A stretch of 64,000 nucleotides of DNA from an uncultured Oscillospiraceae bacterium (GTDB taxonomy: Bacteria > Bacillota > Clostridia > Oscillospirales > Oscillospiraceae), in contig CALXGG010000001.1 of NCBI GenBank assembly GCA_944387785.1, forward strand, positions 9,541 to 73,540. The letters are read 5' to 3'. The notes beneath the pieces were generated by a model. The model ran no database searches. It saw only the letters and a program-made list of their open reading frames with translations, and was not told where the DNA came from. Positions 7,174 through 63,650 of the stretch are shown one piece after another. The position numbers and the translations under genes are program-made. The first letter of the stretch is position 1. Each line of letters begins with the position of its first letter.

Positions 7174-8742
7174 ATGGAGTACATCGTCAAATACAACGGG
7201 GACATCCGGTCCCTGGGATACCCCACGGAGCTGCTGGGCCACCAGTACGCCATTCTGGAGCTCACCGACGGGGAGGCCGCCGCCCTGCCCCGGTCCCCCC
7301 TGGTGGAGTACCTGGAGCCGTCGGAGGGCCTCTCCCCCTTCCTGCGCTCGGGCCTGGACAGCGCCTGCATCACCCCCGTCCTCCGGGACGACGTGCTGGG
7401 CCTTACCGGCCAGGGGATCATTATCGGGTTCATCGACTCCGGCATCGACCTTACCCACCCGGAGTTCCGCACCGAGAGCGGCGCCACCCGGGTCCTCCGG
7501 CTGTGGGACATGACCCTGGCCGGCGACCCGCCGCCGGGGTTCCGCAAGGGCGCCGTCTTTACCGCCGAAGAGATCGACGCCGGGACCGTCCCCAGCCGGG
7601 ACACCGCCGGCCACGGCACCGCCGCCGCCGGCATCGCCGCCGGCCGCAGCGGCATCGCCCCCGGGGCCGCCATCGTATCCGTGAAAATGGGCAGCGGCAG
7701 CGCCACCTCCACCGACGTCATGCGGGGCGTGAAATTCATCTACGACTGCGCCGCCGAGGCCGCCATGCCCTGCGTCGTCAACCTCAGCTACGGCACCAAC
7801 AAGGGCTCCCATCAGGGGCAGTCCCTCTTCGAGACCTATATGGACGCCATGGCCCAGCAGGGGAAAAGCCTCATCGTCTGCGCCGCCGGGAACGAGGGGG
7901 ACAGCGGCCACCACTTCCAGGGCCTCCTGCCGGAGGGCGGCGTGCTGAACGTGGAGTTTGCCGTGTCCACCCGGCGGGAGGAGATCTATCTCACCCTTTG
8001 GAAGAGCTTTGCCGACAGCGCCCGGTTCGAGATGGTCCTTCCCTCCGGCGCCTCCACCGGCCCCCTCTCCCCCGGCGCCCCCCGGCGGTTCGTCTTTGGC
8101 GGCGTGGGCGCGGCCATCGCCTTCAACGGCCCCACCCACTTCTCCACCGCCCAGGAGGTCTACTTCGCCCTGGCCGCCCCGGCCGGCGGCCTCAACGGCC
8201 TGTGGACCCTCCGCTGCTACGGGGACCGGGTGGTGGAGGGCCGCTTCGATATCTGGCTGCCCACCGTGGAGGAGGTGGGGCGGGACACCGCCTTCCTGCT
8301 GCCGGACCCGGAGCTCACCATCACCCTGCCCGCCACCGCCCGGCTGCCGGTGGCCGTAGGGGGGTACCGCTCCGGCACCGGCACCGCCAGCCCCTTTTCC
8401 GGCCGGGGTGCCGCCCCCTGCCTGGGGTACGCCCAGCTGGACATCTGCGCCCCGGCGGAGCAGGTCTACACCGCCAAGGCCGGCGGCGGCTACGACACCT
8501 ACACCGGCACCAGCATGGCCGCCCCCTTCGTCTCCGGCTGCGGGGCCCTGCTGATGGAGTGGGGCATCGTCCGGGGCTACGACCCCTTCCTCTTCGGCCA
8601 GAGGATCAAGGCCTTCCTCTGCGCCGACGCCGCCCGGAGCCCATTCCTCTCCTACCCGGACCCCGTGTGGGGCTACGGGAAGCTCAATCTCTGCCAAACG
8701 CTGGCGGACCTGGTCCGCCAGTGGGAAAGGGGGACGCTGTGA
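7174..8742 (+). CDS. Csp-family subtilisin-like germination protease (S8), catalytic triad intact
   Basis: 522 aa. Asp in GFIDSGID, His in DTAGHGTAAAG, Ser in YTGTSMAAPF. RBS AAAGGGGAG. Divergent from sleC. Confidence 0.8.
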   Translation: MEYIVKYNGDIRSLGYPTELLGHQYAILELTDGEAAALPRSPLVEYLEPSEGLSPFLRSGLDSACITPVLRDDVLGLTGQGIIIGFIDSGIDLTHPEFRTESGATRVLRLWDMTLAGDPPPGFRKGAVFTAEEIDAGTVPSRDTAGHGTAAAGIAAGRSGIAPGAAIVSVKMGSGSATSTDVMRGVKFIYDCAAEAAMPCVVNLSYGTNKGSHQGQSLFETYMDAMAQQGKSLIVCAAGNEGDSGHHFQGLLPEGGVLNVEFAVSTRREEIYLTLWKSFADSARFEMVLPSGASTGPLSPGAPRRFVFGGVGAAIAFNGPTHFSTAQEVYFALAAPAGGLNGLWTLRCYGDRVVEGRFDIWLPTVEEVGRDTAFLLPDPELTITLPATARLPVAVGGYRSGTGTASPFSGRGAAPCLGYAQLDICAPAEQVYTAKAGGGYDTYTGTSMAAPFVSGCGALLMEWGIVRGYDPFLFGQRIKAFLCADAARSPFLSYPDPVWGYGKLNLCQTLADLVRQWERGTL

Positions 8743-10442
8743 AGCTGCCGGAAGAGATGCGGGCATTCATCGACGCGCCGGACACCGTGGATTTCGTCAC
8801 CCGGGCCACCGACGCCTTCTTCGACTTCGTCCGGGACAGCGGCGAGGTGATCGTGGGGCAGATCCTCTCGGGAAGGTATGTCCTGGGGTACATCAAGGAG
8901 GAGAATTTCCCCCACCTGGAAGCCGCCCTGGGGGCCGGCTTCGTCAGCTCCGCCTCGGTGGTGCTGGGGCCTCTGGACCGCCCCGCCCTGGAGGCCGCCG
9001 GCATCATCCAGGTGCAGAACCAGCCCTACCTCAGCCTGAAGGGCCGGGGGGTACTGCTGGGCTTCGTGGACACGGGGATCGACTACACCTTACCCGTCTT
9101 TCGCTACGCGGATGGTACCAGTAAAGTAAAATTCCTATACGACCAGACGGCGGAGGGCACGCCGCCCAGGGGATTCACCTCCGGTGTGGAATACACCGGC
9201 GAGGACATCGACCGGGCCCTGGCCGCCCAGGATCCCTACGCCGTGGTGCCCCAGAAGGACGACAGCGGCCACGGCACCTTCCTAGCCTCGGTGGCCGCCG
9301 GCCTGCCGGTGGAGGATTTCATCGGCGCCGCCCCCGACGCGGAGATCATCGCGGTAAAGCTGCGGAAGGCCCGGCCCTTCTACCGGAAAAAATACTGCGT
9401 GCCCCCCTGGCAGGGGGAGGCCTACGAGTCCAGCGCGGTGATGGTGGGGGTGGAGTACATCCTCAAGAAGGCCCAGGCCCTGGGCCGGCCGGTGGTGATC
9501 TGCCTGGGCATGGGCACCAACTTCGGCAGCCACGACGGCTTCAGCGTTTTTGAGGAGTATCTGGAGGGGGTGTCCATCCGCAAGGGCGTGTGCCTGTGCG
9601 CCGCCGCCGGCAATGAGAGCCAGGCCCGCCACCACTGCCAGGGCACCCTTCTGGCCGGGGAGAGCTCCGCCGTGGACATCAAAGTGGGCGAGCAGGCCGG
9701 AGACATATACCTCGCCCTCTGGAACACCATCTCCGACCGCTTCTCCGCCTCCGTCCGCTCCCCCTCCGGGGAGCTGGTGGGCAGGATCCCCGCCCGGAGC
9801 GGCAATATGACGGAGGTGAAGCTGATCCTGGAGCGGACGAAGGTACAGGTGGAGTACCACTTCCCGGTGGAGGGCAGCGGCGGCCAGCTGACCATCGTCC
9901 GCATCCTGGACGCCACGCCGGGGATCTGGACCGTGACCCTCTACGGAGACATCGTCCTCAACGGCGGCTACCACGCCTGGCTGCCCATGACCGGCTTCGT
10001 CTCCCCCACGGTGGAGTTCCTCTACGCCTCCCCGGACTACACCATCACCGTCCCCGCCACCACCGCCGGGCCCATCTGCTGCGGCGCCTACAACAGCGCC
10101 AACCAGAGCATCTACTCCCGCTCCTCCCGGGGGCCCTCCCGGCTGGGGCAGGTCCTGCCGGACCTGGTGGCCCCGGGGGTATCGGTGGGCGGGTTCTACC
10201 CCTATGGCTACGGCACCATGTCCGGCACCAGCGCCGCGGCGGCCGTGCTGGCGGGGGCCTGCGCCCTGCTGCTCCAGTGGGGGATCATCGAGGAGAACGA
10301 CCCTGCCATGAGCACCTACCAGATCCGGGCCTACCTGATCCGGGGCTGCCTGCGGAGCCCCGCCATGACCTACCCCAACGTCCAGTGGGGCTACGGGGCC
10401 GTCCAGCTCATGCAGACCTTCCATCTGATGCGGGAGCTGTGA
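8739..10442 (+). CDS. second Csp-family subtilisin-like protease (S8), catalytic triad intact
   Basis: GTG 8739 overlaps the upstream stop (GTGA) and has a GGGAAAGGGGGA RBS. Asp in GFVDTGID, His in DDSGHGTFLAS, Ser in MSGTSAAAA. The upstream part of ORF 7503..10442 is out-of-frame shadow. Confidence 0.8.
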   Translation: MKLPEEMRAFIDAPDTVDFVTRATDAFFDFVRDSGEVIVGQILSGRYVLGYIKEENFPHLEAALGAGFVSSASVVLGPLDRPALEAAGIIQVQNQPYLSLKGRGVLLGFVDTGIDYTLPVFRYADGTSKVKFLYDQTAEGTPPRGFTSGVEYTGEDIDRALAAQDPYAVVPQKDDSGHGTFLASVAAGLPVEDFIGAAPDAEIIAVKLRKARPFYRKKYCVPPWQGEAYESSAVMVGVEYILKKAQALGRPVVICLGMGTNFGSHDGFSVFEEYLEGVSIRKGVCLCAAAGNESQARHHCQGTLLAGESSAVDIKVGEQAGDIYLALWNTISDRFSASVRSPSGELVGRIPARSGNMTEVKLILERTKVQVEYHFPVEGSGGQLTIVRILDATPGIWTVTLYGDIVLNGGYHAWLPMTGFVSPTVEFLYASPDYTITVPATTAGPICCGAYNSANQSIYSRSSRGPSRLGQVLPDLVAPGVSVGGFYPYGYGTMSGTSAAAAVLAGACALLLQWGIIEENDPAMSTYQIRAYLIRGCLRSPAMTYPNVQWGYGAVQLMQTFHLMREL

Positions 10443-53272: not shown

Positions 53273-53324
53273 TGTTGACAAATCAACATTTTCTTGCTAC
53301 AATCCGGCTCGTTGATTTCTCAAC
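53273..53324 (+). promoter_or_regulatory. sigma-A promoter overlapped by two GTTGA-N4-TCAAC inverted repeats (MarR-type operators)
   Basis: TTGACA 53275-53280, 17-nt spacer, TACAAT 53298-53303. IR1 is TGTTGAcaaaTCAACA at 53273-53288. IR2 is GTTGAtttcTCAAC at 53311-53324. Confidence 0.6.
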
Positions 53325-53341
53325 AACAAGAGGGGTGCCGT

Positions 53342-53848
53342 ATGGTCGATCGCTTTGCGCAGTTCACCGGCGCGGTTTTGGAGCTGCACCGGTGCATCAA
53401 CAGGATCAAGGAGGCCGAGATGGCGGAATGGGGGCTGCGGGGCAGCCACGTCATGTGCCTGTACTACCTGGGCCGGTACGAGGAGGGCCTCACCGCGGCC
53501 CAGCTCACCGCCCTGTGCAAGGAGGACAAGGCCGCCGTCTCCCGCACCGTCAGCCAGCTGGCGGAGCGGGGGCTGGTCTGCCGGGTCCCCTCCGGGGCCG
53601 GCAGCGCCTACCGGGCCGCCCTGTGCCTCACCGGCCAGGGGAAGGACCTGGTCAGCCGCATCAACCGGAAGATCGAAGGGGTCCTCTCCTGCAGCAGCCG
53701 GGGGATCCCCGACGAAAAGCGGGACGATCTCTACCGCTCCCTCCAGGTGATCCTGGAAAACCTGGAGCGGTATGTGGCCCAGAAGGAGGAGGGCCTCCCC
53801 TCCCCAGAAGGCGCCCCCATATCAGGAAAGAAGGAATCTGAAGCATGA
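53342..53848 (+). CDS. MarR-family transcriptional regulator
   Basis: 168 aa from ATG 53342. Winged-helix region LTAAQLTALCKEDKAAVSRTVSQLAERGLV. Confidence 0.85.
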   Translation: MVDRFAQFTGAVLELHRCINRIKEAEMAEWGLRGSHVMCLYYLGRYEEGLTAAQLTALCKEDKAAVSRTVSQLAERGLVCRVPSGAGSAYRAALCLTGQGKDLVSRINRKIEGVLSCSSRGIPDEKRDDLYRSLQVILENLERYVAQKEEGLPSPEGAPISGKKESEA

Positions 53849-55011
53849 AAAAAGGGCTCAAAATCGCGGCCGGCGTGCTGGCCGGCCTTGTAGCAGCCGC
53901 CGCCATCGCCGTGGCCTGCCTGTGGGGCAACGAGATCCGCACCCTCGCCTCTATCAAGGAGCTGGCGCCCTCCAACGACGAACACCGGGACGGCGCGGTG
54001 TATGAGATCACCGTGGCCGGGGACTACTACTTCGACCGCTTCCTGGAGGAGGGCGGCGCTTCCAGCGACACCCAGCTCATCTCCTTTATCACCGGCTGCA
54101 TCGGCAAGGGGATCATCCCCCTGGAGATCCAGGAGTCCAGCATCTCCTGCTCCTCCTTCACCGCCGTGACGGAGGAGGGCGACCGGGTGTTCGGCCGCAA
54201 CTATGACTTTGACAAGACCAACACCGCCATCGTCTACACCAACCCCGGCAACGGCCGCCATGCCTCGGTGTCCACCGTGGACCTCCAGTTCCTGGGCGTG
54301 GATCCCGACGCCGGCGTCACCGGCCTTATGGACAAGTTCCTGTGCCTGGCCGCCCCCTACGCCCCCCTGGACGGCGTCAACGACGCCGGGGTCAGCTGCG
54401 GTATCTATATGACCTATCAGGGGGAGGAAACCGTGGCCACCGACCAGCAGACCGACAAGCCGGACATCACCTCCACCACCATGCTGCGGATGATCCTGGA
54501 CTACGCCTCCACCGTGGACGAGGCCATCGCCCTGGTGGAGCAGTACGACCTCCACGACTCCGCCAACACCTCCTACCACTACATGGTGGCCGACGCCCAG
54601 GGCAACAGCGCCGTCCTGGAGTGGGTGGCCGGCACCGACAGCACCGACAACGACGGCTCCGCCCGGCAGCTCAACGTGATCCGCAACGACCCCGCGGAGA
54701 ACTTCCAGTGCGTGACCAACTTCATCCTCACCCCCGGCTACTACGAGGAGGGAGATGAGATGGGCGGCAAGGACCGCTACGACCTGCTCACCGCCACCCT
54801 GGCGGAGACGGGCGGCACCGTGGCCGACGACCAGGCCGCCATGGACGTGCTGTCCTTGGTGGGCCGGCGGACCTGGGTGGTGGACGGCGACCACACCCAG
54901 GGCACCACCGTCCACAGCGTGGTCTACAACCTCACCGACTGCACCGCCCTCTGGGTAGGCAACGAGCACTACGGGGAGGACGCCTATACCTTCCATCTCC
55001 AGACCCCCTGA
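53845..55011 (+). CDS. membrane-anchored Ntn hydrolase (peptidase C45 / choloylglycine-hydrolase-like linear amide C-N hydrolase)
   Basis: 388 aa. N-terminal TM anchor, about 100-aa pro-region, then a candidate nucleophile Cys in SISCSSFTA followed by GRNYDF. ATGA overlap with marR. Confidence 0.6.
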   Translation: MKKGLKIAAGVLAGLVAAAAIAVACLWGNEIRTLASIKELAPSNDEHRDGAVYEITVAGDYYFDRFLEEGGASSDTQLISFITGCIGKGIIPLEIQESSISCSSFTAVTEEGDRVFGRNYDFDKTNTAIVYTNPGNGRHASVSTVDLQFLGVDPDAGVTGLMDKFLCLAAPYAPLDGVNDAGVSCGIYMTYQGEETVATDQQTDKPDITSTTMLRMILDYASTVDEAIALVEQYDLHDSANTSYHYMVADAQGNSAVLEWVAGTDSTDNDGSARQLNVIRNDPAENFQCVTNFILTPGYYEEGDEMGGKDRYDLLTATLAETGGTVADDQAAMDVLSLVGRRTWVVDGDHTQGTTVHSVVYNLTDCTALWVGNEHYGEDAYTFHLQTP

Positions 55012-55258: not shown

Positions 55259-55933
55259 ATGAAGCTCCTGTACGCAGAGGATGAGGTGAGCATGTCCGAA
55301 GCGGTGGTGGACATCCTGACCTATCACAAATATATTGTCGACGCCGTGTACGACGGCGCGGAGGCCCTGGCCTACGCCCAGGCGGAGACCTACGACGGCA
55401 TCATCCTGGACATCATGATGCCCAAGCTCAGCGGCCTGGAGGTCCTCCGGCAGCTGCGCTCCGGCGGCTGCCGGACCCCTATCCTGCTGCTCACGGCCAA
55501 GGCGGAGGTGGAGGACCAGATCCAGGGCCTGGACCTGGGGGCGGACGACTACCTCCCCAAGCCCTTCCCCATGGACCTGCTGCTGGCCCGGGTCCGTGCC
55601 ATGCTCCGGCGGCGGGAGGCCTTTACCCCCACCGCCCTCACCTGCGGCAACCTGTCCCTCAACCAGCAGAGCTGTGAGCTCTCGGCCAACGGCCGCTCCT
55701 TCGTGCTGCCCAGGCTGGAGTACCAGCTCATGGAGCTGCTGCTCCTCAACAAGGGGATCTACCTCTCCACCGAGGACCTGCTGGTGAAGGTATGGGGCTA
55801 TGACACCGAGGCGGAGCTGGGGACGGTGTGGGTGTATATCTCCTACCTGCGCAAGCGCCTGTCCGCCCTGGACGCCAACGTGGCCATCACCGCCAAGCGG
55901 GGCGTGGGCTACACCCTGGAGGTGACGGCATGA
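55259..55933 (+). CDS. OmpR/PhoB-family response regulator
   Basis: 224 aa from ATG 55259. Receiver LLYAEDE...IILDIMMPKLSG and winged-helix C-terminus VYISYLRKRL. Confidence 0.9.
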   Translation: MKLLYAEDEVSMSEAVVDILTYHKYIVDAVYDGAEALAYAQAETYDGIILDIMMPKLSGLEVLRQLRSGGCRTPILLLTAKAEVEDQIQGLDLGADDYLPKPFPMDLLLARVRAMLRRREAFTPTALTCGNLSLNQQSCELSANGRSFVLPRLEYQLMELLLLNKGIYLSTEDLLVKVWGYDTEAELGTVWVYISYLRKRLSALDANVAITAKRGVGYTLEVTA

Positions 55934-57171
55934 TCCGCTCCCTCCAGCGGCGGTTGGTCACCACCGCCATGACCGCCATCACCGTCCTGCTCCTCCTGCT
56001 GCTGGGAGGCATCAACATCGCCAACATCGTCATCGTGGGCGGCGAGATCGACCGGACCCTCCATGTGGTGGCCCAGGGGGACCTCAGCGCCGGAGGTTTT
56101 GCCCCGGCGGCGGACGCTCTCGCCCCCCGCCCCGGCGGGATGGCGCCGAAAAATGACTACGACACCTTTTTGTCCGCCAACTTTTTCGTGGTGCGCTTCG
56201 ACCCCAGCGACGCCGCCGTCTACACCGACGTGAGCCGCACCTCCGCCGTGACGGAGGAGGAGGCCCGGGCGCTGGCCGCCCAGGCCCTGGACGGGGACAG
56301 CGACAGCGGCCGCTCCGGCCGCTTCCGCTACCTCATCCAGGACGTCCCCGGCGGCAGGGGAAAGACCGCCGTGTTCCTGGACACCTCGGCGGAGCGGTTC
56401 TCCTATCTCCGGGTGCTGCTCCTCTCCGGCGCCGCCGGGCTGGTCTGCTGGGGCTGCATGCTGGCCCTGGTGATCCTCCTCTCCCGGCGGGCCATCCGTC
56501 CCATCGCCGAGAGTCTGGAGAAGCAAAAGCAGTTCGTGACCAACGCCGGCCACGAGCTCAAGACCCCCCTGGCCATCATCCAGTCCAACACGGAGGCCCT
56601 GGAGCTCTACAACGGGGAGAGCAAATGGAGCCGGAACATCAAGGAGCAGATCCTCCGCCTCAGCGGGCTGATGGAGAACCTGCTGGCCCTGGCCCGCATG
56701 GACGAGGGGGCCGTCCAGCCCCGGGCGGCGGACTTCTGCCTGAGCGACCTCCTCGCCGAGGCGGCCGCCCGCTTCGCCCAGCCCATGGAGGCCCGGCGGC
56801 TCTCCCTGGAGTCTGAGATCGCCCCCGGCGTCCATCTCCACGCCGACCCCCGCCAGATCGAGCAGATGATCTCCCTCCTGCTGGACAACGCGGTGAAATA
56901 CGCCGACGAGGGGGGCACGGTGTGCCTCCGCCTGGCCGAAACCGACCGGCAGGTGGTGCTGGAGCTGGAGAACACCTGCCCCTCCCTCCCCGCCGTGCCG
57001 CCGGAAAAGCTCTTCGACCGCTTCTACCGGGGGGACGGCGCCCGGACCCAGAAGAGCGGCGGCTACGGCATCGGCCTTTCCGCCGCCCGCTCCCTGGCCC
57101 AGGCCAACCGCGGCTCCCTCCGCGCTGACTATGTGCCTCCCCGCCGCATCCGCTTCACCGCGAGATTCTGA
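55930..57171 (+). CDS. sensor histidine kinase (two TM segments, HisKA + HATPase_c)
   Basis: 413 aa, ATGA overlap with the response regulator. H-box HELKTPLAIIQSN, N-box LLDNAVKYA, G-box GGYGIGLS. Confidence 0.9.
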   Translation: MIRSLQRRLVTTAMTAITVLLLLLLGGINIANIVIVGGEIDRTLHVVAQGDLSAGGFAPAADALAPRPGGMAPKNDYDTFLSANFFVVRFDPSDAAVYTDVSRTSAVTEEEARALAAQALDGDSDSGRSGRFRYLIQDVPGGRGKTAVFLDTSAERFSYLRVLLLSGAAGLVCWGCMLALVILLSRRAIRPIAESLEKQKQFVTNAGHELKTPLAIIQSNTEALELYNGESKWSRNIKEQILRLSGLMENLLALARMDEGAVQPRAADFCLSDLLAEAAARFAQPMEARRLSLESEIAPGVHLHADPRQIEQMISLLLDNAVKYADEGGTVCLRLAETDRQVVLELENTCPSLPAVPPEKLFDRFYRGDGARTQKSGGYGIGLSAARSLAQANRGSLRADYVPPRRIRFTARF

Positions 57172-57186
57172 TCCTTTCCCCCTTCC

Positions 57187-57221
57187 GGGACGCCGCGCAG
57201 ACGCGCGGCGTCCCCTTTTTT
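57187..57221 (+). terminator. intrinsic terminator after the kinase gene
   Basis: GGGACGCCGCGC aga GCGCGGCGTCCC, then CTTTTTT. Confidence 0.75.
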
Positions 57222-57222
57222 G

Positions 57223-57240
57223 CTTCTAAACTCCTTCTAA
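57223..57240 (+). promoter_or_regulatory. direct repeat CTTCTAA x2 with 11-bp phasing (candidate response-regulator box)
   Basis: CTTCTAA occurs at 57223-57229 and 57234-57240, 47-64 bp upstream of the VTC-domain gene start. No good -35 box is nearby. Confidence 0.35.
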
Positions 57241-57286
57241 GGTTGCCGCCCTATCCTTTCCACAGCGAACAGAAAGGAGGCGCCCC

Positions 57287-57955
57287 ATGGACTATCGCCA
57301 TGAGTGGAAGCACGAGATCGGCTACCCGGACCTGCTGGCCCTCCGCCGCCGGCTGGCGGCGGTGATGGACCCGGACCCCCACGCCGCAAACGGCAAATAT
57401 GACATCCGGAGCCTGTATTTCGACAACCTGGCGGACAGGGCCCTGCGGGAAAAGCTGGACGGCGTCAACGGCCGGGAAAAGTTCCGCATCCGCTGCTACA
57501 ACGGCAGCGCCGCCCTGCTCCTGCTGGAAAAAAAGGGCAAAATCAACGGTCTTTGCCGCAAGGAGCAGGAGTCCCTGTCCCGGGAGGAGGTCCGCCGGAT
57601 CCTCCGGGGGGACATGGCCCCGCCCCCGGCGGGCAGGCCCCTCCTGACGGAGCTCTGCCGGAAAATGGCCCTCCAGGGGCTCCGCCCCCGGACCATCGTG
57701 GACTACACCCGGGAACCCTTCGTCTTTGGGCCGGGGAACGTCCGGGTCACCCTGGACCACCACATCCGCACGGGCCTCGCGGGCACCGACCTTCTGGACC
57801 CGGAGTGCGTCACCATCCCGGTCCGGGGGGACCCCATCATCCTGGAGGTGAAGTGGGACGCCTTCCTCCCTGCCGTGATCCGGGACATCGTCCAGGTCCC
57901 CGGCACCCACACCTCCGCCTACTCCAAATACGCCGCCTGCCGCGTCTTTGGCTGA
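57287..57955 (+). CDS. VTC-domain protein (triphosphate-tunnel, polyphosphate-polymerase-like)
   Basis: 222 aa. RBS AGAAAGGAGG. EWKHEI...IRSLYFDN...REKFRIRCYNG...LEKKGK pattern is typical of bacterial VTC/TTM-domain proteins. Confidence 0.7.
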   Translation: MDYRHEWKHEIGYPDLLALRRRLAAVMDPDPHAANGKYDIRSLYFDNLADRALREKLDGVNGREKFRIRCYNGSAALLLLEKKGKINGLCRKEQESLSREEVRRILRGDMAPPPAGRPLLTELCRKMALQGLRPRTIVDYTREPFVFGPGNVRVTLDHHIRTGLAGTDLLDPECVTIPVRGDPIILEVKWDAFLPAVIRDIVQVPGTHTSAYSKYAACRVFG

Positions 57956-57989
57956 GCGGCCCCATTCTATGAACAGGAGCGTATCCACC

Positions 57990-58661
57990 ATGACCTTTCA
58001 GGACATCTTCAAATCCAGCTTCCTTGAAAACATCAGCAGCGTCTCCCTGCTGGACATGGCCATCGCCATGGCCCTGGCCTTCGGCCTTGGCCTTTTCATC
58101 TTCCTCATCTACAAAAAGACCTTTGCCGGGGTCATGTACTCCTCCAGCTTCGGCGTGACCCTGGTGGCCCTGACCATGATCTCCACCCTGGTGATCCTGG
58201 CGGTTACCTCCAACGTGGTGCTGTCCCTGGGCATGGTGGGCGCCCTGTCCATCGTCCGCTTCCGCACCGCCATCAAGGAGCCCCTGGACATCGCCTTCCT
58301 CTTCTGGGCCATCGCCGTGGGCATCGTCCTGGCGGCGGGGATGATCCCCCTGGCCGTGTTCGGCAGCGTCATCATCGGCGTGGTGCTGCTGCTCTTCGCC
58401 AACCGAAAGTCCCATGTGAACCCCTACATCGTGGTCCTGCGCTGCGAGGGCCACGACAGCGAGGTGATGGCCACCGAGTTCCTCAAAAAGCAGGTCCGCC
58501 GCATGGTCATCAAAAGTAAGACCGTCCAGCGGGGCTCCGTGGAGATCAACGCCGAGATCCGCATGGGGGACGACAACACCGACTTCATCAACATCCTCTC
58601 GGAGATGAGCGGCGTGACCAGCGCCGTGCTGGTCAGCTACAACGGCGACTACCTGGGCTGA
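57990..58661 (+). CDS. DUF4956-family multi-pass membrane protein
   Basis: 223 aa from ATG 57990 (alternative start ATG 57969). Three to four TM segments, then a soluble C-terminal domain. It has the usual partner position between VTC and CotH genes. Confidence 0.65.
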   Translation: MTFQDIFKSSFLENISSVSLLDMAIAMALAFGLGLFIFLIYKKTFAGVMYSSSFGVTLVALTMISTLVILAVTSNVVLSLGMVGALSIVRFRTAIKEPLDIAFLFWAIAVGIVLAAGMIPLAVFGSVIIGVVLLLFANRKSHVNPYIVVLRCEGHDSEVMATEFLKKQVRRMVIKSKTVQRGSVEINAEIRMGDDNTDFINILSEMSGVTSAVLVSYNGDYLG

Positions 58662-58676
58662 GCGGAGGGAGCGGCC

Positions 58677-60737
58677 ATGTCCACCCACAAAGCCATTGAC
58701 AGGATCTGCTGCGCCGGTATCGTGCTGGCCGTGCTCCTGGCCCTCGTCTTTATGAACGGGGAGAGCCTGGGCATACAGGCGGCCTCCTCCGTCCTGGGCT
58801 ACGAGGACCGCCTCTTCGACACCGGGACCGTCCACACCATCGACATCGTCATGGACGACTGGGAGGGCTTCCTGGAGGGCTGCACCGACGAGGAATACGT
58901 CCTCTGCGACCTGGTCATCGACGGCGAGACCTGCGCCAACGTGGCCATCCGGGCCAAGGGGAACACCTCCCTCACCCAGGTGGCCAGCTACGGCAACGAC
59001 CGGTACAGCTTCAAGATCGAATTCGACCACTACGACAGCGGCAACACCTACCACGGCCTGGATAAGCTGTGCCTCAACAATATCATCCAGGACAACACCT
59101 ATATGAAGGACTACCTCACCTACCAGATGATGGCCGCCTTCGGCGTGAACGCCCCCCTGTGCAGCTTCGTCTACCTCACCGTCAACGGCGAGGACTGGGG
59201 GCTGTACCTGGCGGTGGAAGGCGTGGAGGACGCCTTCCTCCAGCGCAATTACGGCAGCAACAGCGGGGAACTCTATAAGCCCGACACCATGGACATGGGC
59301 GGCGGCCGCAGCAACGGCGGCGCCTTCGACATGGAGGAGTGGATGGCCGGCCGGGAGGCGGATGGCGCGGAGGACGCCTTCGACCGGGACGCTTTCCTCC
59401 CGGAGCGGGGCGAGGGCGCGGAGGCCGGGGATATGCCGGAGCCGCCCCAGGGCGGGGCCTTCGGCGCGGCCCCGGAGGGAGAATCTCCCTTTGTCGGCGC
59501 GCCCGGAGAGGCGGCGGAAGGCTCCGGTGACGGCGGCTCCGCCTTCGGCGGACGGGGCGGCGGCATGGGCGGCTCCCTGGGCAGCGACGACGTCTCCCTC
59601 CTCTACACCGACGACGACTATGACAGTTATTCCAACATCTTCGAGAACGCCAAGACCGACATCACCGACGCCGACAAGGACCGGCTCATCCAGTCCCTCC
59701 GGCTGCTGAACGAAGGGGAGGACATCGAGAGCGTGGTGGATGTGGAGCAGGTGATCCGCTACTTCGTGGTCCACAACTTCGTCTGCAACTTTGACAGCTA
59801 CACCGGCTCCATGATCCACAACTACTACCTCTACGAGGAGGACGGGCAGCTGTCCATGATCCCCTGGGACTACAACCTGGCCTTCGGCGGCTTCCAGGGT
59901 TCCGAGGATGCCACCGCCCTGGTGAACTACCCCATCGACACGCCGGTGTCCGGCGGCAGCGTGGATTCCCGGCCCATGCTGGCCTGGATCTTCGCCAGCG
60001 AGGAGTATACCGAGCTCTACCACCAGTATTTCGACGAATTCATCTCAGGCTATTTCGGGAGCGGCTATTTCAGCCAGCTGATGGACCAGGTGTACGACCT
60101 CATCGCCCCCTATGTGGAGCGGGATCCCACCAAGTTCTGCACCTACGAGGAGTTCGAGGCGGGCTTCGCCGCCCTGGAGCAGTTCTGCCTCCTGCGGGCG
60201 GAGAGCGTCCAGGGGCAGCTGGAGGGGACCATCCCCGCCACCTCCGACGGCCAGAGCCAGGACAGCAGCGCCCTCATCGACGCCTCCGGGCTCACCATCT
60301 CCGACATGGGCTCCATGAACGGCGGCGGGATGGGCCTGCCCGGCGGGCGCGGGGACTTCCCCGGCACGGCGGAGGATGGGTCCCCGGCGGCACCTTCTTC
60401 CGGCGGCTTTCCTGAAGATGGAGTAGCCCGGGACGCCCTCCCCGAGGGCGAGGAAGCCCCGGAGACCCTCCCGGATGACGCCGCTGAGGCCCCGGGCGCC
60501 GGAGCCCCGGCGGACAGCGGCAGCGAGGCGATCCGGCCTGGCCAGGACGGCGGTTTCTCCCGGCAGGAGGACGGTTTCTCCGGCCAGGGCGGCTTTACTG
60601 TCCCGGACGGCAGTTTCTCCGCCCCGGACGGCGGCCTCTCCGGCCAAAGCACGGAGTCGGCCCTGCTCCTGGGCGTCAGCGCCGCCGTACTGCTGGCGGC
60701 CATCGCCGCCGCCCTGCTCTACAAAAAGCGGGTATGA
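58677..60737 (+). CDS. CotH-family (atypical kinase fold) protein with N- and C-terminal membrane anchors
   Basis: 686 aa. RAKGNTSL, YSFKIEFDHY, LNNIIQDNTYMKDYLTYQMM, WGLYLAVEGV, and YLYEEDGQLSMIPWDYNLAFG CotH-type blocks. Low-complexity insert and C-terminal repeats. Confidence 0.75.
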   Translation: MSTHKAIDRICCAGIVLAVLLALVFMNGESLGIQAASSVLGYEDRLFDTGTVHTIDIVMDDWEGFLEGCTDEEYVLCDLVIDGETCANVAIRAKGNTSLTQVASYGNDRYSFKIEFDHYDSGNTYHGLDKLCLNNIIQDNTYMKDYLTYQMMAAFGVNAPLCSFVYLTVNGEDWGLYLAVEGVEDAFLQRNYGSNSGELYKPDTMDMGGGRSNGGAFDMEEWMAGREADGAEDAFDRDAFLPERGEGAEAGDMPEPPQGGAFGAAPEGESPFVGAPGEAAEGSGDGGSAFGGRGGGMGGSLGSDDVSLLYTDDDYDSYSNIFENAKTDITDADKDRLIQSLRLLNEGEDIESVVDVEQVIRYFVVHNFVCNFDSYTGSMIHNYYLYEEDGQLSMIPWDYNLAFGGFQGSEDATALVNYPIDTPVSGGSVDSRPMLAWIFASEEYTELYHQYFDEFISGYFGSGYFSQLMDQVYDLIAPYVERDPTKFCTYEEFEAGFAALEQFCLLRAESVQGQLEGTIPATSDGQSQDSSALIDASGLTISDMGSMNGGGMGLPGGRGDFPGTAEDGSPAAPSSGGFPEDGVARDALPEGEEAPETLPDDAAEAPGAGAPADSGSEAIRPGQDGGFSRQEDGFSGQGGFTVPDGSFSAPDGGLSGQSTESALLLGVSAAVLLAAIAAALLYKKRV
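60546..60648 (+). repeat. imperfect tandem coding repeat (GACGG-N-GTTTCTCC units) encoding DG(G)FS repeats
   Basis: Four to five degenerate 21-24-nt units are visible in the sequence. They translate to DGGFSRQEDGFSGQGGFTVPDGSFSAPDGGLSGQ. Confidence 0.6.
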
Positions 60738-60754: not shown

Positions 60755-60796
60755 AGCCGCGGCAGCGCACACGCTGCCGCGGCTGTTTTCTCTTTT
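60755..60796. terminator. intrinsic terminator between convergent genes
   Basis: AGCCGCGGCAGCG cacac GCTGCCGCGGCT, then GTTTTCTCTTTT. Confidence 0.75.
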
Positions 60797-60802
60797 CCGC
60801 CC

Positions 60803-61459
60803 CTAACCCTCCAGGGACGCGGCCAGGGAGCGGACCGTCTCCTCCGAAAGGCCCAGCGCCCGCTCCAGCAGCGCCTCCCCCTGCCGCCGGTACCGGGCGG
60901 CAAGATCTTTATCCTTCAGGCTGCCCACGTTGATGAGCACGTTCAGCCAGGCCCCCCGGGCGCAGGCGCCCAGGGACAGCGCCGCCACCCCCAGGTCGCT
61001 GGCGGCGCTCTCGTTGAAGCGGCCGGGCAGGGAGGCGGTCAGCGCCAGGGCCTCCGCCGCCAGCTCCATGACGCGCAGGGGCGTCTGCGTACACAGGGCC
61101 AGGCCCCGCTGGATGGCCGCCGACCGGGCCGCCTTCTCCTCCTCCGTGGCTTTGGGCATGGCAAAGGCCCGGCTCACCTGGAGGAATGCCTCCGTATCCT
61201 GGTCCATGGCTTCCAGGAGCGCCTTCCGCAGGGCCTCCGCCCTGTCCCGGACGGCGGCGATCTCCTCCCGGTGGGCGTCGTACCGCGCCTTCCCCAGGGT
61301 CAGCTCGCAGACCATGGCGGTGAGGGCCGCTCCCACGGCCCCCTCCAGGGCGGCGGCGGAGCCTCCGCCTGGGGCGGGCGCATCGGAGGCCAAAAGGGCG
61401 GTAAACGCCTCTACCGGCTGCTCTGCCAGCAGCGGGGATCTCGTCTGCTGATACTCCAT
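60803..61459 (-). CDS. formimidoyltetrahydrofolate cyclodeaminase / cyclohydrolase-family protein
   Basis: 218 aa. PAPGGGSAAALEGAVGAALTAMV motif is typical of the FtcD C-terminal-type domain. Confidence 0.8.
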   Translation of the reverse strand: MEYQQTRSPLLAEQPVEAFTALLASDAPAPGGGSAAALEGAVGAALTAMVCELTLGKARYDAHREEIAAVRDRAEALRKALLEAMDQDTEAFLQVSRAFAMPKATEEEKAARSAAIQRGLALCTQTPLRVMELAAEALALTASLPGRFNESAASDLGVAALSLGACARGAWLNVLINVGSLKDKDLAARYRRQGEALLERALGLSEETVRSLAASLEG

Positions 61460-61475
61460 CTTTCTGCTCCCCCCC

Positions 61476-62387
61476 TTACTCCCGGTCCAGCAGGCGGTAT
61501 TCCATCACCTGCTTGCGGCAGTCAAAGCCCTCCATCTTCAGGTAGTACTCCGCGCAGTCCAGCAGAGCCTTGGCCGGTGTCAGGCCCACCAGCTCGCTGC
61601 CGATGATCCGCACGCCGTAGCGGTCCGCCAGGGCCCGGATCATCTCAAAGGCGTAGTAGATGGGCGTGCCCTCGTAGTTCACCAGGTTCATGGACACCTG
61701 GGCGATGTTGCGCTCCTCCAGCATGACGCCGATGGCCTTGCAGTACTGGAAGCCGCCGTTGGAGCCCCGGATAGCCCGGGCGATCTTGTTGGCGATCTCC
61801 AGGTCGCTGGTATCCAGGTTGACGTTATAGGCGATGAGGGGCATCCGGGCGCCGATGGCGATGATGCCGGCGGTGGGGTGGATCTTCCGCTCCCCGTAAT
61901 CCGGCGCCCACTCCGGCTGGAGCAGCTTCTCCGGCATCCCCTCGAACTGCCCCTTGCGGACCTTGGCCAGATTGACCCGATCCGGAGAGGTGGCGGAGTC
62001 CTCATAGAGGAAGGAGGGCACCTTCAGCTCCTCCCAGATCCGCTGGGCCACCCGCTTGCTCAGCGCCACGCACTCCGTCACGGTCATGTCCATGGTGGGG
62101 ACGAAGGGGATCACATCGGTGGCCCCCATCCGGGGGTGCTGGCCCTTGTGCTTGGTCATGTCGATGCGCTCGGTGGCCTTCGCCGTCAGGCGGAAGGCCG
62201 CCTCCTCGATGGCCTGGGGAGACCCCACCATCGTAAATACGCAGCGGTTATGGTCCCCGTCGGACTGGACATCCAGCACCGCGCAGCCGGGGACGCTGCC
62301 CGCGGTATCCACCAGCTCCTGGAACACCGCCGGATCCGACTGCCTGCTGACGCTGAAATTGGGGATGCACTCTACCAGTTTTGCCAT
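61476..62387 (-). CDS. glutamate formimidoyltransferase
   Basis: 303 aa. N-terminal LVECIPNFSVSR and HPRMGATDVIPFVP blocks. Confidence 0.85.
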   Translation of the reverse strand: MAKLVECIPNFSVSRQSDPAVFQELVDTAGSVPGCAVLDVQSDGDHNRCVFTMVGSPQAIEEAAFRLTAKATERIDMTKHKGQHPRMGATDVIPFVPTMDMTVTECVALSKRVAQRIWEELKVPSFLYEDSATSPDRVNLAKVRKGQFEGMPEKLLQPEWAPDYGERKIHPTAGIIAIGARMPLIAYNVNLDTSDLEIANKIARAIRGSNGGFQYCKAIGVMLEERNIAQVSMNLVNYEGTPIYYAFEMIRALADRYGVRIIGSELVGLTPAKALLDCAEYYLKMEGFDCRKQVMEYRLLDRE

Positions 62388-62405
62388 ATCGTTTCCTCTC
62401 CGGGC

Positions 62406-63650
62406 TCAGTTGGCCCCTGTTGTATTTGGATAGGTCCTGCCGCCCTTGACGACGGTATGGACCAGGTTGCTGCCCATGCGGTAACAGACATAGTTGAGGT
62501 TCCGGGCCTCCCAGAGCAGGAGGTCCCCCCGTTTCCCCGGCTCCAGGGAGCCCACGGATTCCGCCCGGCCGATGGCGGCGGCGCCGTTGAGGGTAACGGC
62601 GGTGAGCACCTCCTCCGGGGTCAGCCGGTAGCGCAGGCACCCCAGGTTCATCACCAGCTGCATATTCAGGCAGGGGCAGGAGCCTGGGTTGAAGTCCGTG
62701 GCCATGGCCACCGGCACCCCGGCCTCCACCATCCTCCGGGCAGGAGCGTACTCCGCCCCCAGGTAGAAGCTGGTGGCGGGCAGCAGGCAGGCCACCGTGC
62801 CGCCCCGGGCCATGCTGGCGATGCCCTCCTCCGGGCAGACGATCAGATGCTCCGCCGAAACGGCGCCGATCTCCCCCGCCAACTGGGAGCCGCCGATGGG
62901 GTCGATCTCGTCGGCGTGAATCTTGGGCCGCAGGCCGTACCGCTTCCCGGCCTCCAGGATCCGCCGGGACTCCTCCGCCGTAAATACCCCCGTCTCGCAG
63001 AACACATCGCAGAATTCCGCCAGCTGTTCCTCCGCTGCCCGGGGGATCATCTCCTCGCAGACCAGGGAGACGTAGGCCTCCCGGTTCTCTTTATACGCCT
63101 GGGGCAGGGCGTGGGCCCCCATGAAGGTGGCTACAAGGTCGATGGGATGGCGCCGGTCCAGGGAGCGGATGGCCCGCAGCTGCTTGCACTCCTCCTCCGT
63201 GGTAAGACCGTAGCCGCTTTTCGCCTCGCAGGTAGTGGTGCCAAAGCGGAGCATCTCGTCCAGGGCTGCCGCCGCCTTGTCCGCCAGCTCCTCCTCCGTG
63301 GCGGCCCGGGTGGCCGTCACCGTGGAAAGGATGCCGCCTCCCTGGGCCAGAATGTCCAGATAGGGCACCCCGTGGAGCTTCAGCGCCAGCTCGTTCTGCC
63401 GCCAGCCCCCAAACACCAGATGGGTGTGGGCGTCCACCAGCCCCGGCGTCACCAGACGGCCGCCGGCATCCAGAACGGGGCAGCCGGTCCCCTCCGGCGC
63501 GCCGGTACCCAGGGCGGCGATGACGCCGTCCTCGATCCGCAGCCAGGCGTCATGGAGGAGCCGGATCTCCCCCTGGGCCTCCCCGCCCCTGGCGGCGCTG
63601 CCCACAGGGGTGGCCAGAAGGCCGATGTTCACCACCAACAGATCGCTCAT
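62406..63650 (-). CDS. hutI: imidazolonepropionase
   Basis: 414 aa. Amidohydrolase HTHLVFGG metal motif and the KIHADE and ATDFNPGS blocks. Confidence 0.85.
   Translation of the reverse strand: MSDLLVVNIGLLATPVGSAARGGEAQGEIRLLHDAWLRIEDGVIAALGTGAPEGTGCPVLDAGGRLVTPGLVDAHTHLVFGGWRQNELALKLHGVPYLDILAQGGGILSTVTATRAATEEELADKAAAALDEMLRFGTTTCEAKSGYGLTTEEECKQLRAIRSLDRRHPIDLVATFMGAHALPQAYKENREAYVSLVCEEMIPRAAEEQLAEFCDVFCETGVFTAEESRRILEAGKRYGLRPKIHADEIDPIGGSQLAGEIGAVSAEHLIVCPEEGIASMARGGTVACLLPATSFYLGAEYAPARRMVEAGVPVAMATDFNPGSCPCLNMQLVMNLGCLRYRLTPEEVLTAVTLNGAAAIGRAESVGSLEPGKRGDLLLWEARNLNYVCYRMGSNLVHTVVKGGRTYPNTTGAN

Follow-up and report, generated by a model that had tools for sequence, protein, structure and literature searches.

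In the eukaryotic VTC complex (yeast Vtc4/Vtc3/Vtc1; 3g3q, 8i6v, 7ytj), a catalytic tunnel domain is coupled to a membrane protein, the polymer goes to the vacuole, and regulation is by inositol pyrophosphates. In bacteria, genes of the VTC, DUF4956 and CotH families have been reported side by side. Lepp et al. (2010) listed VTC, 'tubulin/FtsZ' and CotH genes in the Clostridium perfringens locus NELoc-2, by a HEAT-repeat protein and a chitin-synthase-like glycosyltransferase (PMC2879425); judged by its size and position rather than its sequence, the 'tubulin/FtsZ' gene would be a mislabelled DUF4956 gene. According to Whitfield et al. (2020), the pelDEADAFG genes of streptococci, clostridia and bifidobacteria are contiguous with an accessory set that consists of cotH, a 'poly-phosphate polymerase', DUF4956 and DUF4832; a regulation of Pel through phosphorylation by CotH was put forward as a possibility (PMC7112168). 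In Streptococcus intermedius, where the same three families are contiguous within SIR_1594-1591, each gene of the trio was deleted in 2025 with modest phenotypes: loss of DUF4956 (SIR_1592) raised Pel and lowered aggregation, and loss of CotH (SIR_1594) lowered both, and the authors did not find this synteny outside the Pel locus (PMC12345266). Here, we analysed a stretch of 64,000 nucleotides from an uncultured Oscillospiraceae bacterium (assembly GCA_944387785.1, contig CALXGG010000001.1; the whole 64-kb stretch is called the window below), in which a VTC-DUF4956-CotH trio lies downstream of a response regulator (RR) and histidine kinase (HK) pair.

As a gene set, the trio was known before; its stand-alone, apparently two-component-driven and anchor-coupled form is new. 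What this locus and its relatives add are the Vtc4-like residues and fold of the VTC protein, a near-invariant VTC-DUF4956 pair, a swappable third gene with a shared anchor, a cassette without pel or other exopolysaccharide genes, a terminator between the two-component system (TCS) and the trio, and promoter repeats linked to the clade of the regulator. Our preferred reading, with a probability of roughly 0.4, is that the VTC protein would polymerise polyphosphate on an MgtC-like DUF4956 protein, the polymer being passed to the outside and used there by CotH. An earlier note on this DNA had placed five plus-strand open reading frames (ORFs) in the region and assigned the last three to the VTC, DUF4956 and CotH families. 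Its layout proved exact for 5/5 ORFs (Table 1), in agreement with a GC content at third codon positions (GC3) of 0.90-0.92 in all five genes, a coding-type composition by codon-position GC in this high-GC bacterium (~66 %), and with the independent gene calls of a 97 %-identical metagenomic relative, which give identical boundaries; Pfam also confirms the domain assignments of all five.

The VTC protein is Vtc4-like in sequence and in its modelled fold. It scores 107.3 bits against PF09359 (cut-off 23) over residues 4-218. A single-sequence search of the PDB with the window protein gave no matches, and a family profile placed the yeast Vtc4 tunnel domain first (2.9e-9), with Vtc2 after it. In an alignment of 46 diverse full-length homologues, 37-63 % identical to the window protein, R4, E6, Y44, D46, G59, K65, R67, R69, Y71, E81, K83, K92, R142, D157, E187, K189, P195, S213 and K214 are invariant, and Y140 and R153 are kept in at least 90 %. 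The profile alignment pairs R67/R69 with R264/R266 of Vtc4, K83 with K281, K92 with K294, Y140 with Y359, R142 with R361, R153 with R373, E187 with E426 and S213/K214 with S457/K458; these Vtc4 positions, K294 apart, we take to be its catalytic tunnel residues. The Lys, Arg and Glu residues of the tunnel, the loss of which the earlier note had named as evidence against its proposal, are kept in both comparisons. Strand 1 reads R4-x-E6-x-K8 and lies before position 13, where the profile alignment begins; K8 is probably the equivalent of Vtc4 K200, by strand register only and outside the alignment. The AlphaFold2 model of the protein is confident, with a predicted local distance difference test score (pLDDT) of 95 and a predicted TM-score (pTM) of 0.90, and its 13 best PDB matches by Foldseek are all yeast VTC tunnel domains (TM-score 0.63-0.74), compared to 0.39-0.58 for the hydrolytic tunnel enzymes YgiF, CYTH proteins and thiamine triphosphatase. 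Unlike in yeast, the tunnel domain stands alone: neither an SPX domain nor a fused C-terminal VTC-type transmembrane domain is found in the 222 amino acids (aa). The family is large: clustering at 90 % identity gives at least 8,000 clusters, and an exhaustive search (E <= 1e-3) gave 4,512 representatives at 50 % identity. Two apparent fusions, P0183 (VTC+DUF4956) and P0240 (VTC+CotH), have truncated VTC domains; they are probably frameshift or gene-call artefacts and were therefore not used as 'Rosetta stone' evidence, although genuine fusions would tell something about the system.

The membrane partner of the VTC protein differs from that of yeast. The DUF4956 protein scores 38.2 bits against PF16316 (cut-off 30.6), and also matches the MgtC/SapB model NF007431 of NCBIfam over residues 51-211 (3.8e-8), at 33.2 bits against a cut-off of 214. 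Five membrane helices (20-45, 54-73, 76-94, 98-115 and 119-141) are predicted, besides a short amphipathic one, and are followed in the AlphaFold2 model by a C-terminal beta-alpha-beta-beta-alpha-beta domain that is ACT-like; at E <= 1e-3 a single fold match was obtained, to the MgtC C-terminal domain from M. tuberculosis (2lqj), with a TM-score of 0.63 on the target. By profile and model, DUF4956 is hence a divergent MgtC/SapB-type protein, with the same N-terminal helical membrane domain and ACT-like C-terminal domain as MgtC, but it stays far under the cut-off of that family and is always paired with VTC; to our knowledge, classical mgtC is not paired with a VTC gene. A DUF4956 profile run against PDB sequences found nothing credible and no match to any solved VTC chain. 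According to the positive-inside rule (K42K43, R90/R92/K96, R139K140), the N-terminus would lie outside and the ACT-like domain would be cytoplasmic, like VTC, and the loop R90-x-R92-x-x-x-K96, on the cytoplasmic side, is invariant. The stretch LAVTSNVVLSLGMVGALSIVRFRTAIKEPLDIAFLFW is almost invariant too, and the best 120 homologues are all 223 aa long. DUF4956 is the most conserved partner of the trio: identity is 83-89 % among these homologues, ~70 % among those of VTC and 45-65 % among those of CotH. The DUF4956 family comprises at least 8,000 clusters at 90 % identity.

The gene neighbourhood was surveyed by a pattern scan with one genome per species, which gave >600 matches; the best 80 loci, all from Clostridia, were kept, and together with six of the closest relatives, less four near-duplicates, they make up the 82 loci considered here, almost all of different species. 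The genes co-occur well beyond this genome; the opposite had been named by the earlier note as evidence against its proposal. In 75/77 loci the DUF4956 gene comes immediately after VTC, and in the remaining two it is no more than 2 kb away; these counts reject a chance adjacency of the trio. An OmpR-type TCS is found directly upstream in 32 of 68 loci (19 co-directional, 13 divergent), with a partial one in 4 and none in 32. No further conserved neighbours were found in the 82 loci, where generic ABC and MatE transporters alone recur. At 37-39 % identity, and also in Bacilli, VTC and DUF4956 are still paired, and some of the distant pairs have no third gene; three distant VTC representatives sit on contigs of <2 kb that give little gene context. 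The close relatives carry the annotations Oscillospiraceae, Pseudoflavonifractor and Butyricicoccus, and the module is very common in gut Clostridia. Beside a distant pair without a third gene (L088/L089, 10388-13876), an ECF sigma factor, a Big_14 protein and a VWA/YfbK_C protein form a group that may be another surface module.

CotH, the third gene here, is not obligatory: it occupies this place in 51 of 71 loci, and in the other 20 the place is taken by a protein of the Cthe_2159 family (600-850 aa; 2.4e-77, 4.4e-60 and 2.4e-89 for the three proteins tested). According to the part of Close et al. 2014 relayed by 10.1101/401869, Cthe_2159 is a beta-helix resembling PL9 pectate lyases that binds cellulose and polygalacturonic acid. 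The first 33 residues are all that CotH-type and Cthe_2159-type proteins have in common; they form an anchor of consensus MSThk.iDrIC..v....ll.T.LFmNGealGi. Between the two types, pairwise identity averages 0.53 over the anchor and 0.07 over the following 33 residues, compared to 0.57 and 0.55 in the anchor within the types. A generic signal peptide would be much less conserved, and polar positions (D8, C11, T, N-G-E) are among those kept. The anchor may be a membrane helix dedicated to docking, by which the outside protein is attached to the machinery, in the simplest case to DUF4956. The motif belongs to this clostridial clade alone: ordinary N-termini are found in CotH from Pseudobutyrivibrio, from Planococcus and from a relative at 37 % identity. 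The type of third gene mostly tracks the phylogeny of VTC+DUF4956 (nearest neighbour of the same type in 53/57). Anaerobic gut fungi carry both families: CotH and Cthe_2159 are among the 40 Pfam domains unique to them versus the fungi compared, and for Cthe_2159 an acquisition from rumen Clostridiales was inferred (10.1101/401869).

CotH itself looks catalytically competent. It scores 214.9 bits against Pfam, in two stretches on either side of a low-complexity insert, and aligns to B. cereus CotH (5jd9) at 9.1e-12. D373 and D398 align with the NFD and WD aspartates of the B. cereus protein, which lie 23 residues apart, and were equated with D228 and D251 of B. subtilis CotH by motif and equal spacing (23) rather than by direct alignment; D228Q and D251A inactivate the B. 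subtilis kinase (PMC7821199). In at least 95 % of 47 CotH homologues, D373, D398, R92, K94, K113, E115, H381 and N382 are kept, and Cys69, Cys77 and Cys488 are conserved as well. The translation shows a hydrophobic segment at residues ~10-26, preceded by K5/R9, and a second one at the C-terminus, where a faint match to the sorting-domain model GVDTG_CTERM (0.0091) stays under its cut-off. Both segments fit the positive-inside rule, so that the kinase-like domain, an acidic Gly-rich insert between the lobes (~205-300, ~100 aa) and a low-complexity stalk (~520-660, ~140 aa) are predicted to be extracytoplasmic, in line with the earlier note, which had seen CotH as anchored at both ends and likely displayed outside the membrane. 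Insert and stalk are variable among homologues. In Pseudoflavonifractor phocaeensis, CotH is read as two ORFs of 288 and 405 aa in one assembly (L005, 11390-13428) and as one ORF of 679 aa in another (L006, 11390-13429); the break lies in the low-complexity insert, where either the frame is truly shifted or a repetitive stretch was misassembled.

The window protein shares its kinase-like fold family with Bacillus CotH and retains both Asp residues, catalytic and metal-binding. A role in sporulation could be considered, with CotH as a spore-coat kinase and its neighbours incidental. The Oscillospiraceae include spore formers, and in Butyricicoccus porcorum the cassette adjoins yabP-yabQ-divIC. 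However, the window protein is about twice as long as the Bacillus one, with an insert, a stalk and anchors at both ends, and these anchors predict an extracytoplasmic membrane protein rather than a component of a coat that is assembled in the mother-cell cytoplasm. Furthermore, the sporulation neighbours are not conserved, the promoter carries repeats of the response-regulator type, and the trio occurs in non-sporulating streptococci and bifidobacteria (PMC7112168). A sporulation role is hence very improbable, in spite of the intact catalytic residues.

The upstream pair is, by its domain matches, a generic OmpR-family TCS. The RR, its ATG preceded by a GGAGG ribosome-binding site, has RppA, CtrA and PhoB as its best NCBIfam matches, each under the curated cut-off, and its ORF overlaps that of the HK by 4 bp. 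The translation of the HK shows two transmembrane segments around an extracytoplasmic loop of ~120 aa; no HAMP domain was detected in it, and its matches to the RppB, PnpS and PhoR models are below the cut-offs. A Pho regulon (PhoR/PhoB) identity was rejected, all curated Pho equivalogs being far under their cut-offs (PhoB 156 vs 296 bits, PhoR 123 vs 334, PnpS 132 vs 400). In Butyricicoccus porcorum (L003, 5537-8770, and L004), the TCS upstream of the cassette looks degraded: the RR matches in two pieces and has no DNA-binding domain, the HK (315 aa) has no N-terminal sensor part, and in one genome an insertion sequence (rve transposase) lies between HK and VTC.

The earlier note had treated the TCS and the trio as one module under two-component control. 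The regulatory link is backed by the promoter region, but the genes form two transcription units, as suggested by a strong terminator after the HK stop and a second one after CotH (Table 1). Since the sequence occurs in DNA metagenome runs from chicken and bird gut and in no RNA run, all matching runs being DNA metagenomes, co-transcription of the trio was inferred from gene spacing and terminators. Between the first terminator and VTC lies a direct repeat with a period of 11 (box A). Two 7-bp direct repeats with an 11-bp period in place of the -35 element are the site architecture of PhoB/OmpR-family activators, and the repeat is accordingly PhoB-box-like and a candidate binding site of the RR. 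The -10-like hexamer downstream was missed by a consensus promoter scan, and its position relative to the box is conserved in related loci. In these loci, three kinds of repeat are found at the same place: A (CTAAG..CTAAGG), B (TTCAAT..TTCAAT) and C (TTCAGC..TTCAG), with background rates of 0.1 %, 0.07 % and 0.02 % of 125-nt windows, respectively. When the adjacent RRs were clustered at 58 % identity, the type of box co-varied with the clade of the neighbouring RR: box A is present in 5/6 loci of the clade of the window RR, box B in 5/7 of a second co-directional clade and box C in 5/5 of the divergent clade, and none of the three is found in the four loci of a fourth clade. With stricter patterns, a box was found in 40 of 82 upstream regions, against ~0.4 expected, the patterns having been defined on the very loci then counted, which are related to each other. 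The intergenic sequence that flanks the boxes is otherwise unconserved. Boxes also occur in 14 of the 54 loci without a detected adjacent regulator, which points to a regulator encoded elsewhere.

Table 1. Features of the two-component and VTC-DUF4956-CotH region, numbered from the first nucleotide of the window.
Feature	Position	Strand	Basis or remark
Response regulator (RR), OmpR/PhoB-type, 224 aa	55259-55933	+	Pfam Response_reg 1.6e-27 and Trans_reg_C 3.3e-17
Sensor histidine kinase (HK), 413 aa	55930-57171	+	Pfam HisKA 5e-12 and HATPase_c 4e-16
Intrinsic terminator closing the TCS transcript	57187-57214	+	12-bp stem, 11 G-C pairs, then CTTTTTTGCT
Direct repeat CTTCTAA-N4-CTTCTAA, period 11, at the -35 position (box A)	57223-57240	+	candidate RR site
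CTTCTAA repeat copies	57223-57229 and 57234-57240	+	read from sequence
-10-like hexamer TATCCT, 11 bp past the repeat	57252-57257	+	read from sequence
AAAGGAGG	57273-57280	+	between TATCCT and the VTC ATG (57287)
VTC protein, stand-alone tunnel domain, 222 aa, cytosolic	57287-57955	+	PF09359 1.2e-30
DUF4956 membrane protein, 223 aa	57990-58661	+	PF16316 1.6e-9
CotH-family kinase-fold protein, 686 aa	58677-60737	+	PF08757 2.6e-63
33-aa N-terminal anchor of CotH, MSTHKAIDRICC...LVFMNGESLGI	58677-58775	+	common to Cthe_2159-type third genes
CotH catalytic core NFD (D373)...HN (381-382)...WD (D398)	59793-59870	+	aligned to B. cereus CotH
C-terminal transmembrane anchor of CotH, residues 662-682, then cytoplasmic KKRV	60660-60722	+	translation
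Intrinsic terminator closing the trio transcript, common to the convergent hut genes	60755-60784	+	13-bp stem, 11 G-C, T-rich tail

With every gene of the window annotated, no pel or other exopolysaccharide synthase gene was found in it, and a Pel association of the window locus was rejected. Within 10 kb, such genes are absent from the close relatives, and none is conserved across the 82 loci. As there is no other conserved neighbour either, the cassette behaves as a portable stand-alone unit, and the published confinement of the synteny to Pel loci therefore does not hold. Compared to the Gram-positive pel accessory set, neither pel genes nor a DUF4832 hydrolase adjoin the trio in the window or the 82 related loci, the window cassette would have its own TCS-dependent promoter, and CotH has transmembrane anchors instead of an FN3 domain. 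Elsewhere, the trio does lie within exopolysaccharide loci, be it the pel locus (PMC7112168), the GT2-HEAT locus (PMC2879425) or a heteropolysaccharide locus: on pNP95 of Pseudobutyrivibrio xylanivorans, CotH-VTC-DUF4956 stand among GT2, GT4, GT61, acyl- and pyruvyl-transferase genes, and on a Planococcus maritimus plasmid the order is VTC-DUF4956-CotH-hypothetical-HEAT-GT2, a layout as in NELoc-2. The Planococcus and NELoc-2 modules have the same trio in the same order as the window but run on into a processive GT2 synthase and its HEAT-repeat partner, whereas the window operon stops at the terminator after CotH.

These contexts could be taken to mean that the module is an accessory of exopolysaccharide or surface production, in which CotH would be a regulatory kinase and VTC-DUF4956 would supply or sense phosphate, the synthase being encoded elsewhere in the genome. 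The contiguity of the trio with pelDEADAFG and the regulatory role suggested for CotH (PMC7112168), the altered Pel levels of the S. intermedius deletion strains and the exopolysaccharide contexts listed above fit this view. It would nevertheless require a kinase domain with a predicted location outside the membrane, in a space free of ATP, to act on cytoplasmic domains of the synthase that it is unable to reach, and it has to accommodate the absence of synthase genes from the window and of any conserved one within 10 kb in the 82 loci. We consider it rather improbable.

According to the preferred reading, in which polyphosphate is made inside and used outside, the response regulator would activate the VTC-DUF4956-CotH unit via the period-11 repeat at -35, so that regulation would be by a TCS instead of the inositol pyrophosphates of yeast. 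The cytosolic VTC protein, as a Vtc4-type enzyme, would polymerise polyphosphate from ATP while docked on its obligatory partner DUF4956, which, with its five transmembrane helices and ACT-like domain, would substitute for the non-homologous transmembrane domain of eukaryotic VTC. The polymer, or phosphoryl groups, would cross the membrane and reach the cell exterior rather than a vacuole. The third protein, CotH here and Cthe_2159 in sister lineages, would be held by DUF4956 through its conserved N-terminal anchor helix. Outside, without ATP, CotH could use the polymer, for example by phosphorylating or decorating surface or matrix polymers, and Cthe_2159, as a binder of linear polyanionic sugar polymers, could bind it. 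In its most explicit form, with VTC+DUF4956 as a polyphosphate synthase-exporter and a docked CotH that takes the surface polymer as its donor (or Cthe_2159 that binds it), the proposal is a tentative one, and somewhat doubtful.

Several points weigh against this reading. The AlphaFold2 model of DUF4956 has a pLDDT of 62 overall and ~50-60 in the transmembrane part, with a pTM of 0.37; the fold is poor because the homologues are too similar (83-89 %), and since the transmembrane part is of low confidence, no pore is supported. DUF4956, via which the earlier note had the product made at the membrane, is of the MgtC/SapB type, and MgtC relatives are known as regulators and not as channels. In the VTC protein, strand 1 keeps one glutamate of the hydrolytic ExExK motif of the triphosphate tunnel metalloenzymes (TTM), so that hydrolase activity would be possible as far as the sequence goes. 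Characterised CotH uses ATP, and we know of no kinase-fold enzyme that uses polyphosphate. The existence of pairs without a third gene implies that feeding an outside protein is no universal role of VTC-DUF4956, and the way in which the promoter boxes were counted, given above, bears on the regulatory step. In S. intermedius, Pel rises on deletion of DUF4956 and falls on deletion of CotH, an opposition that would not be expected of a simple linear pathway, and loss of the VTC gene (SIR_1593) gave no aggregation phenotype (PMC12345266). Finally, the statement of the earlier note that no role of the trio had been defined by experiment was too strong in one respect, the trio having been described (PMC7112168, PMC2879425) and deleted in S. 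intermedius (PMC12345266), and held in another: our literature search found no biochemical test of the trio or of a bacterial VTC or DUF4956 protein.

Part of the same evidence also fits a module that acts entirely in the cytoplasm, for phosphate, Mg2+ or energy homeostasis. VTC would then make or hydrolyse polyphosphate or a triphosphate compound at the inner face of the membrane under the control of the MgtC-like ACT domain, nothing would be exported, and the third gene would encode a loosely coupled, co-regulated surface protein. The MgtC/SapB-like architecture of DUF4956 would suit such a role, MgtC being known to act on ATP synthase and PhoR (PMC12345266), as would the pairs without a third gene, the compatibility of E6 in strand 1 with TTM hydrolases, and the presence of PhoB, PnpS and PhoR, all under their cut-offs, among the nearest models of the TCS. 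Such a module leaves unexplained why most loci have a third gene, in tight translational arrangement (15-bp gap), and why the trio is repeatedly found inside exopolysaccharide loci (PMC7112168); the anchor helix common to both kinds of third gene is also hard to explain without physical coupling. We regard this cytoplasmic alternative as unlikely.

Other genes lie on either side of the TCS and the cassette. Directly upstream of the TCS (53294-55011, plus strand), a MarR-family regulator overlaps by 4 bp with a 388-aa amidase of the C45/choloylglycine-hydrolase family (N-terminal nucleophile type, Ntn) that has an N-terminal membrane or signal segment; the pair is kept in the 97 %-identical relative, and the amidase might have a bile-salt or penicillin-acylase-like activity under MarR control. 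Downstream (60803-63650, minus strand), a histidine-utilisation (hut) cluster converges on the CotH terminator and consists of a formiminotransferase-cyclodeaminase C-domain protein, formiminotransferase and imidazolonepropionase, to which a relative (L001, 13602-20669) adds urocanase and histidine ammonia-lyase. Further away in the window (7174-10442, plus strand), a large subtilase (Peptidase_S8) appears to be spread over two overlapping ORFs in different frames, with the N-terminal half of the S8 domain in 7174-8742 and the C-terminal half ~2.1 kb further on, in 7503-10442; a frameshift or pseudogene would account for this, as would a sequencing error or an insert of very large size.

Independently of the mechanism, the VTC-DUF4956 pair, the swappable anchored third gene and the regulator-specific boxes provide experimental handles, in a small system with clear point-mutant controls, and correct the Pel-only view of this gene set. 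If the mechanism is true, bacteria would have a route of polyphosphate secretion, the first to be described in them, and the eukaryotic 'polymerise and translocate' principle would have been assembled independently a second time. A synthase-exporter would explain how an extracytoplasmic kinase works without ATP, and so answer the old puzzle of the phosphoryl donor for secreted kinase-fold proteins. It would also explain why the module travels with exopolysaccharide loci of the hexosamine type, where polyphosphate would serve as a polyanionic cross-linker; Pel-type and poly-N-acetylglucosamine (PNAG)-type polymers are partly deacetylated and hence cationic. The module is present in C. perfringens, at a locus linked to necrotic enteritis, and in S. 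intermedius, at the Pel locus, Pel being a reported virulence factor there. This presence, together with the commonness of the module in gut Clostridia, suggests that its function bears on the biology of the biofilm matrix and on host colonisation.

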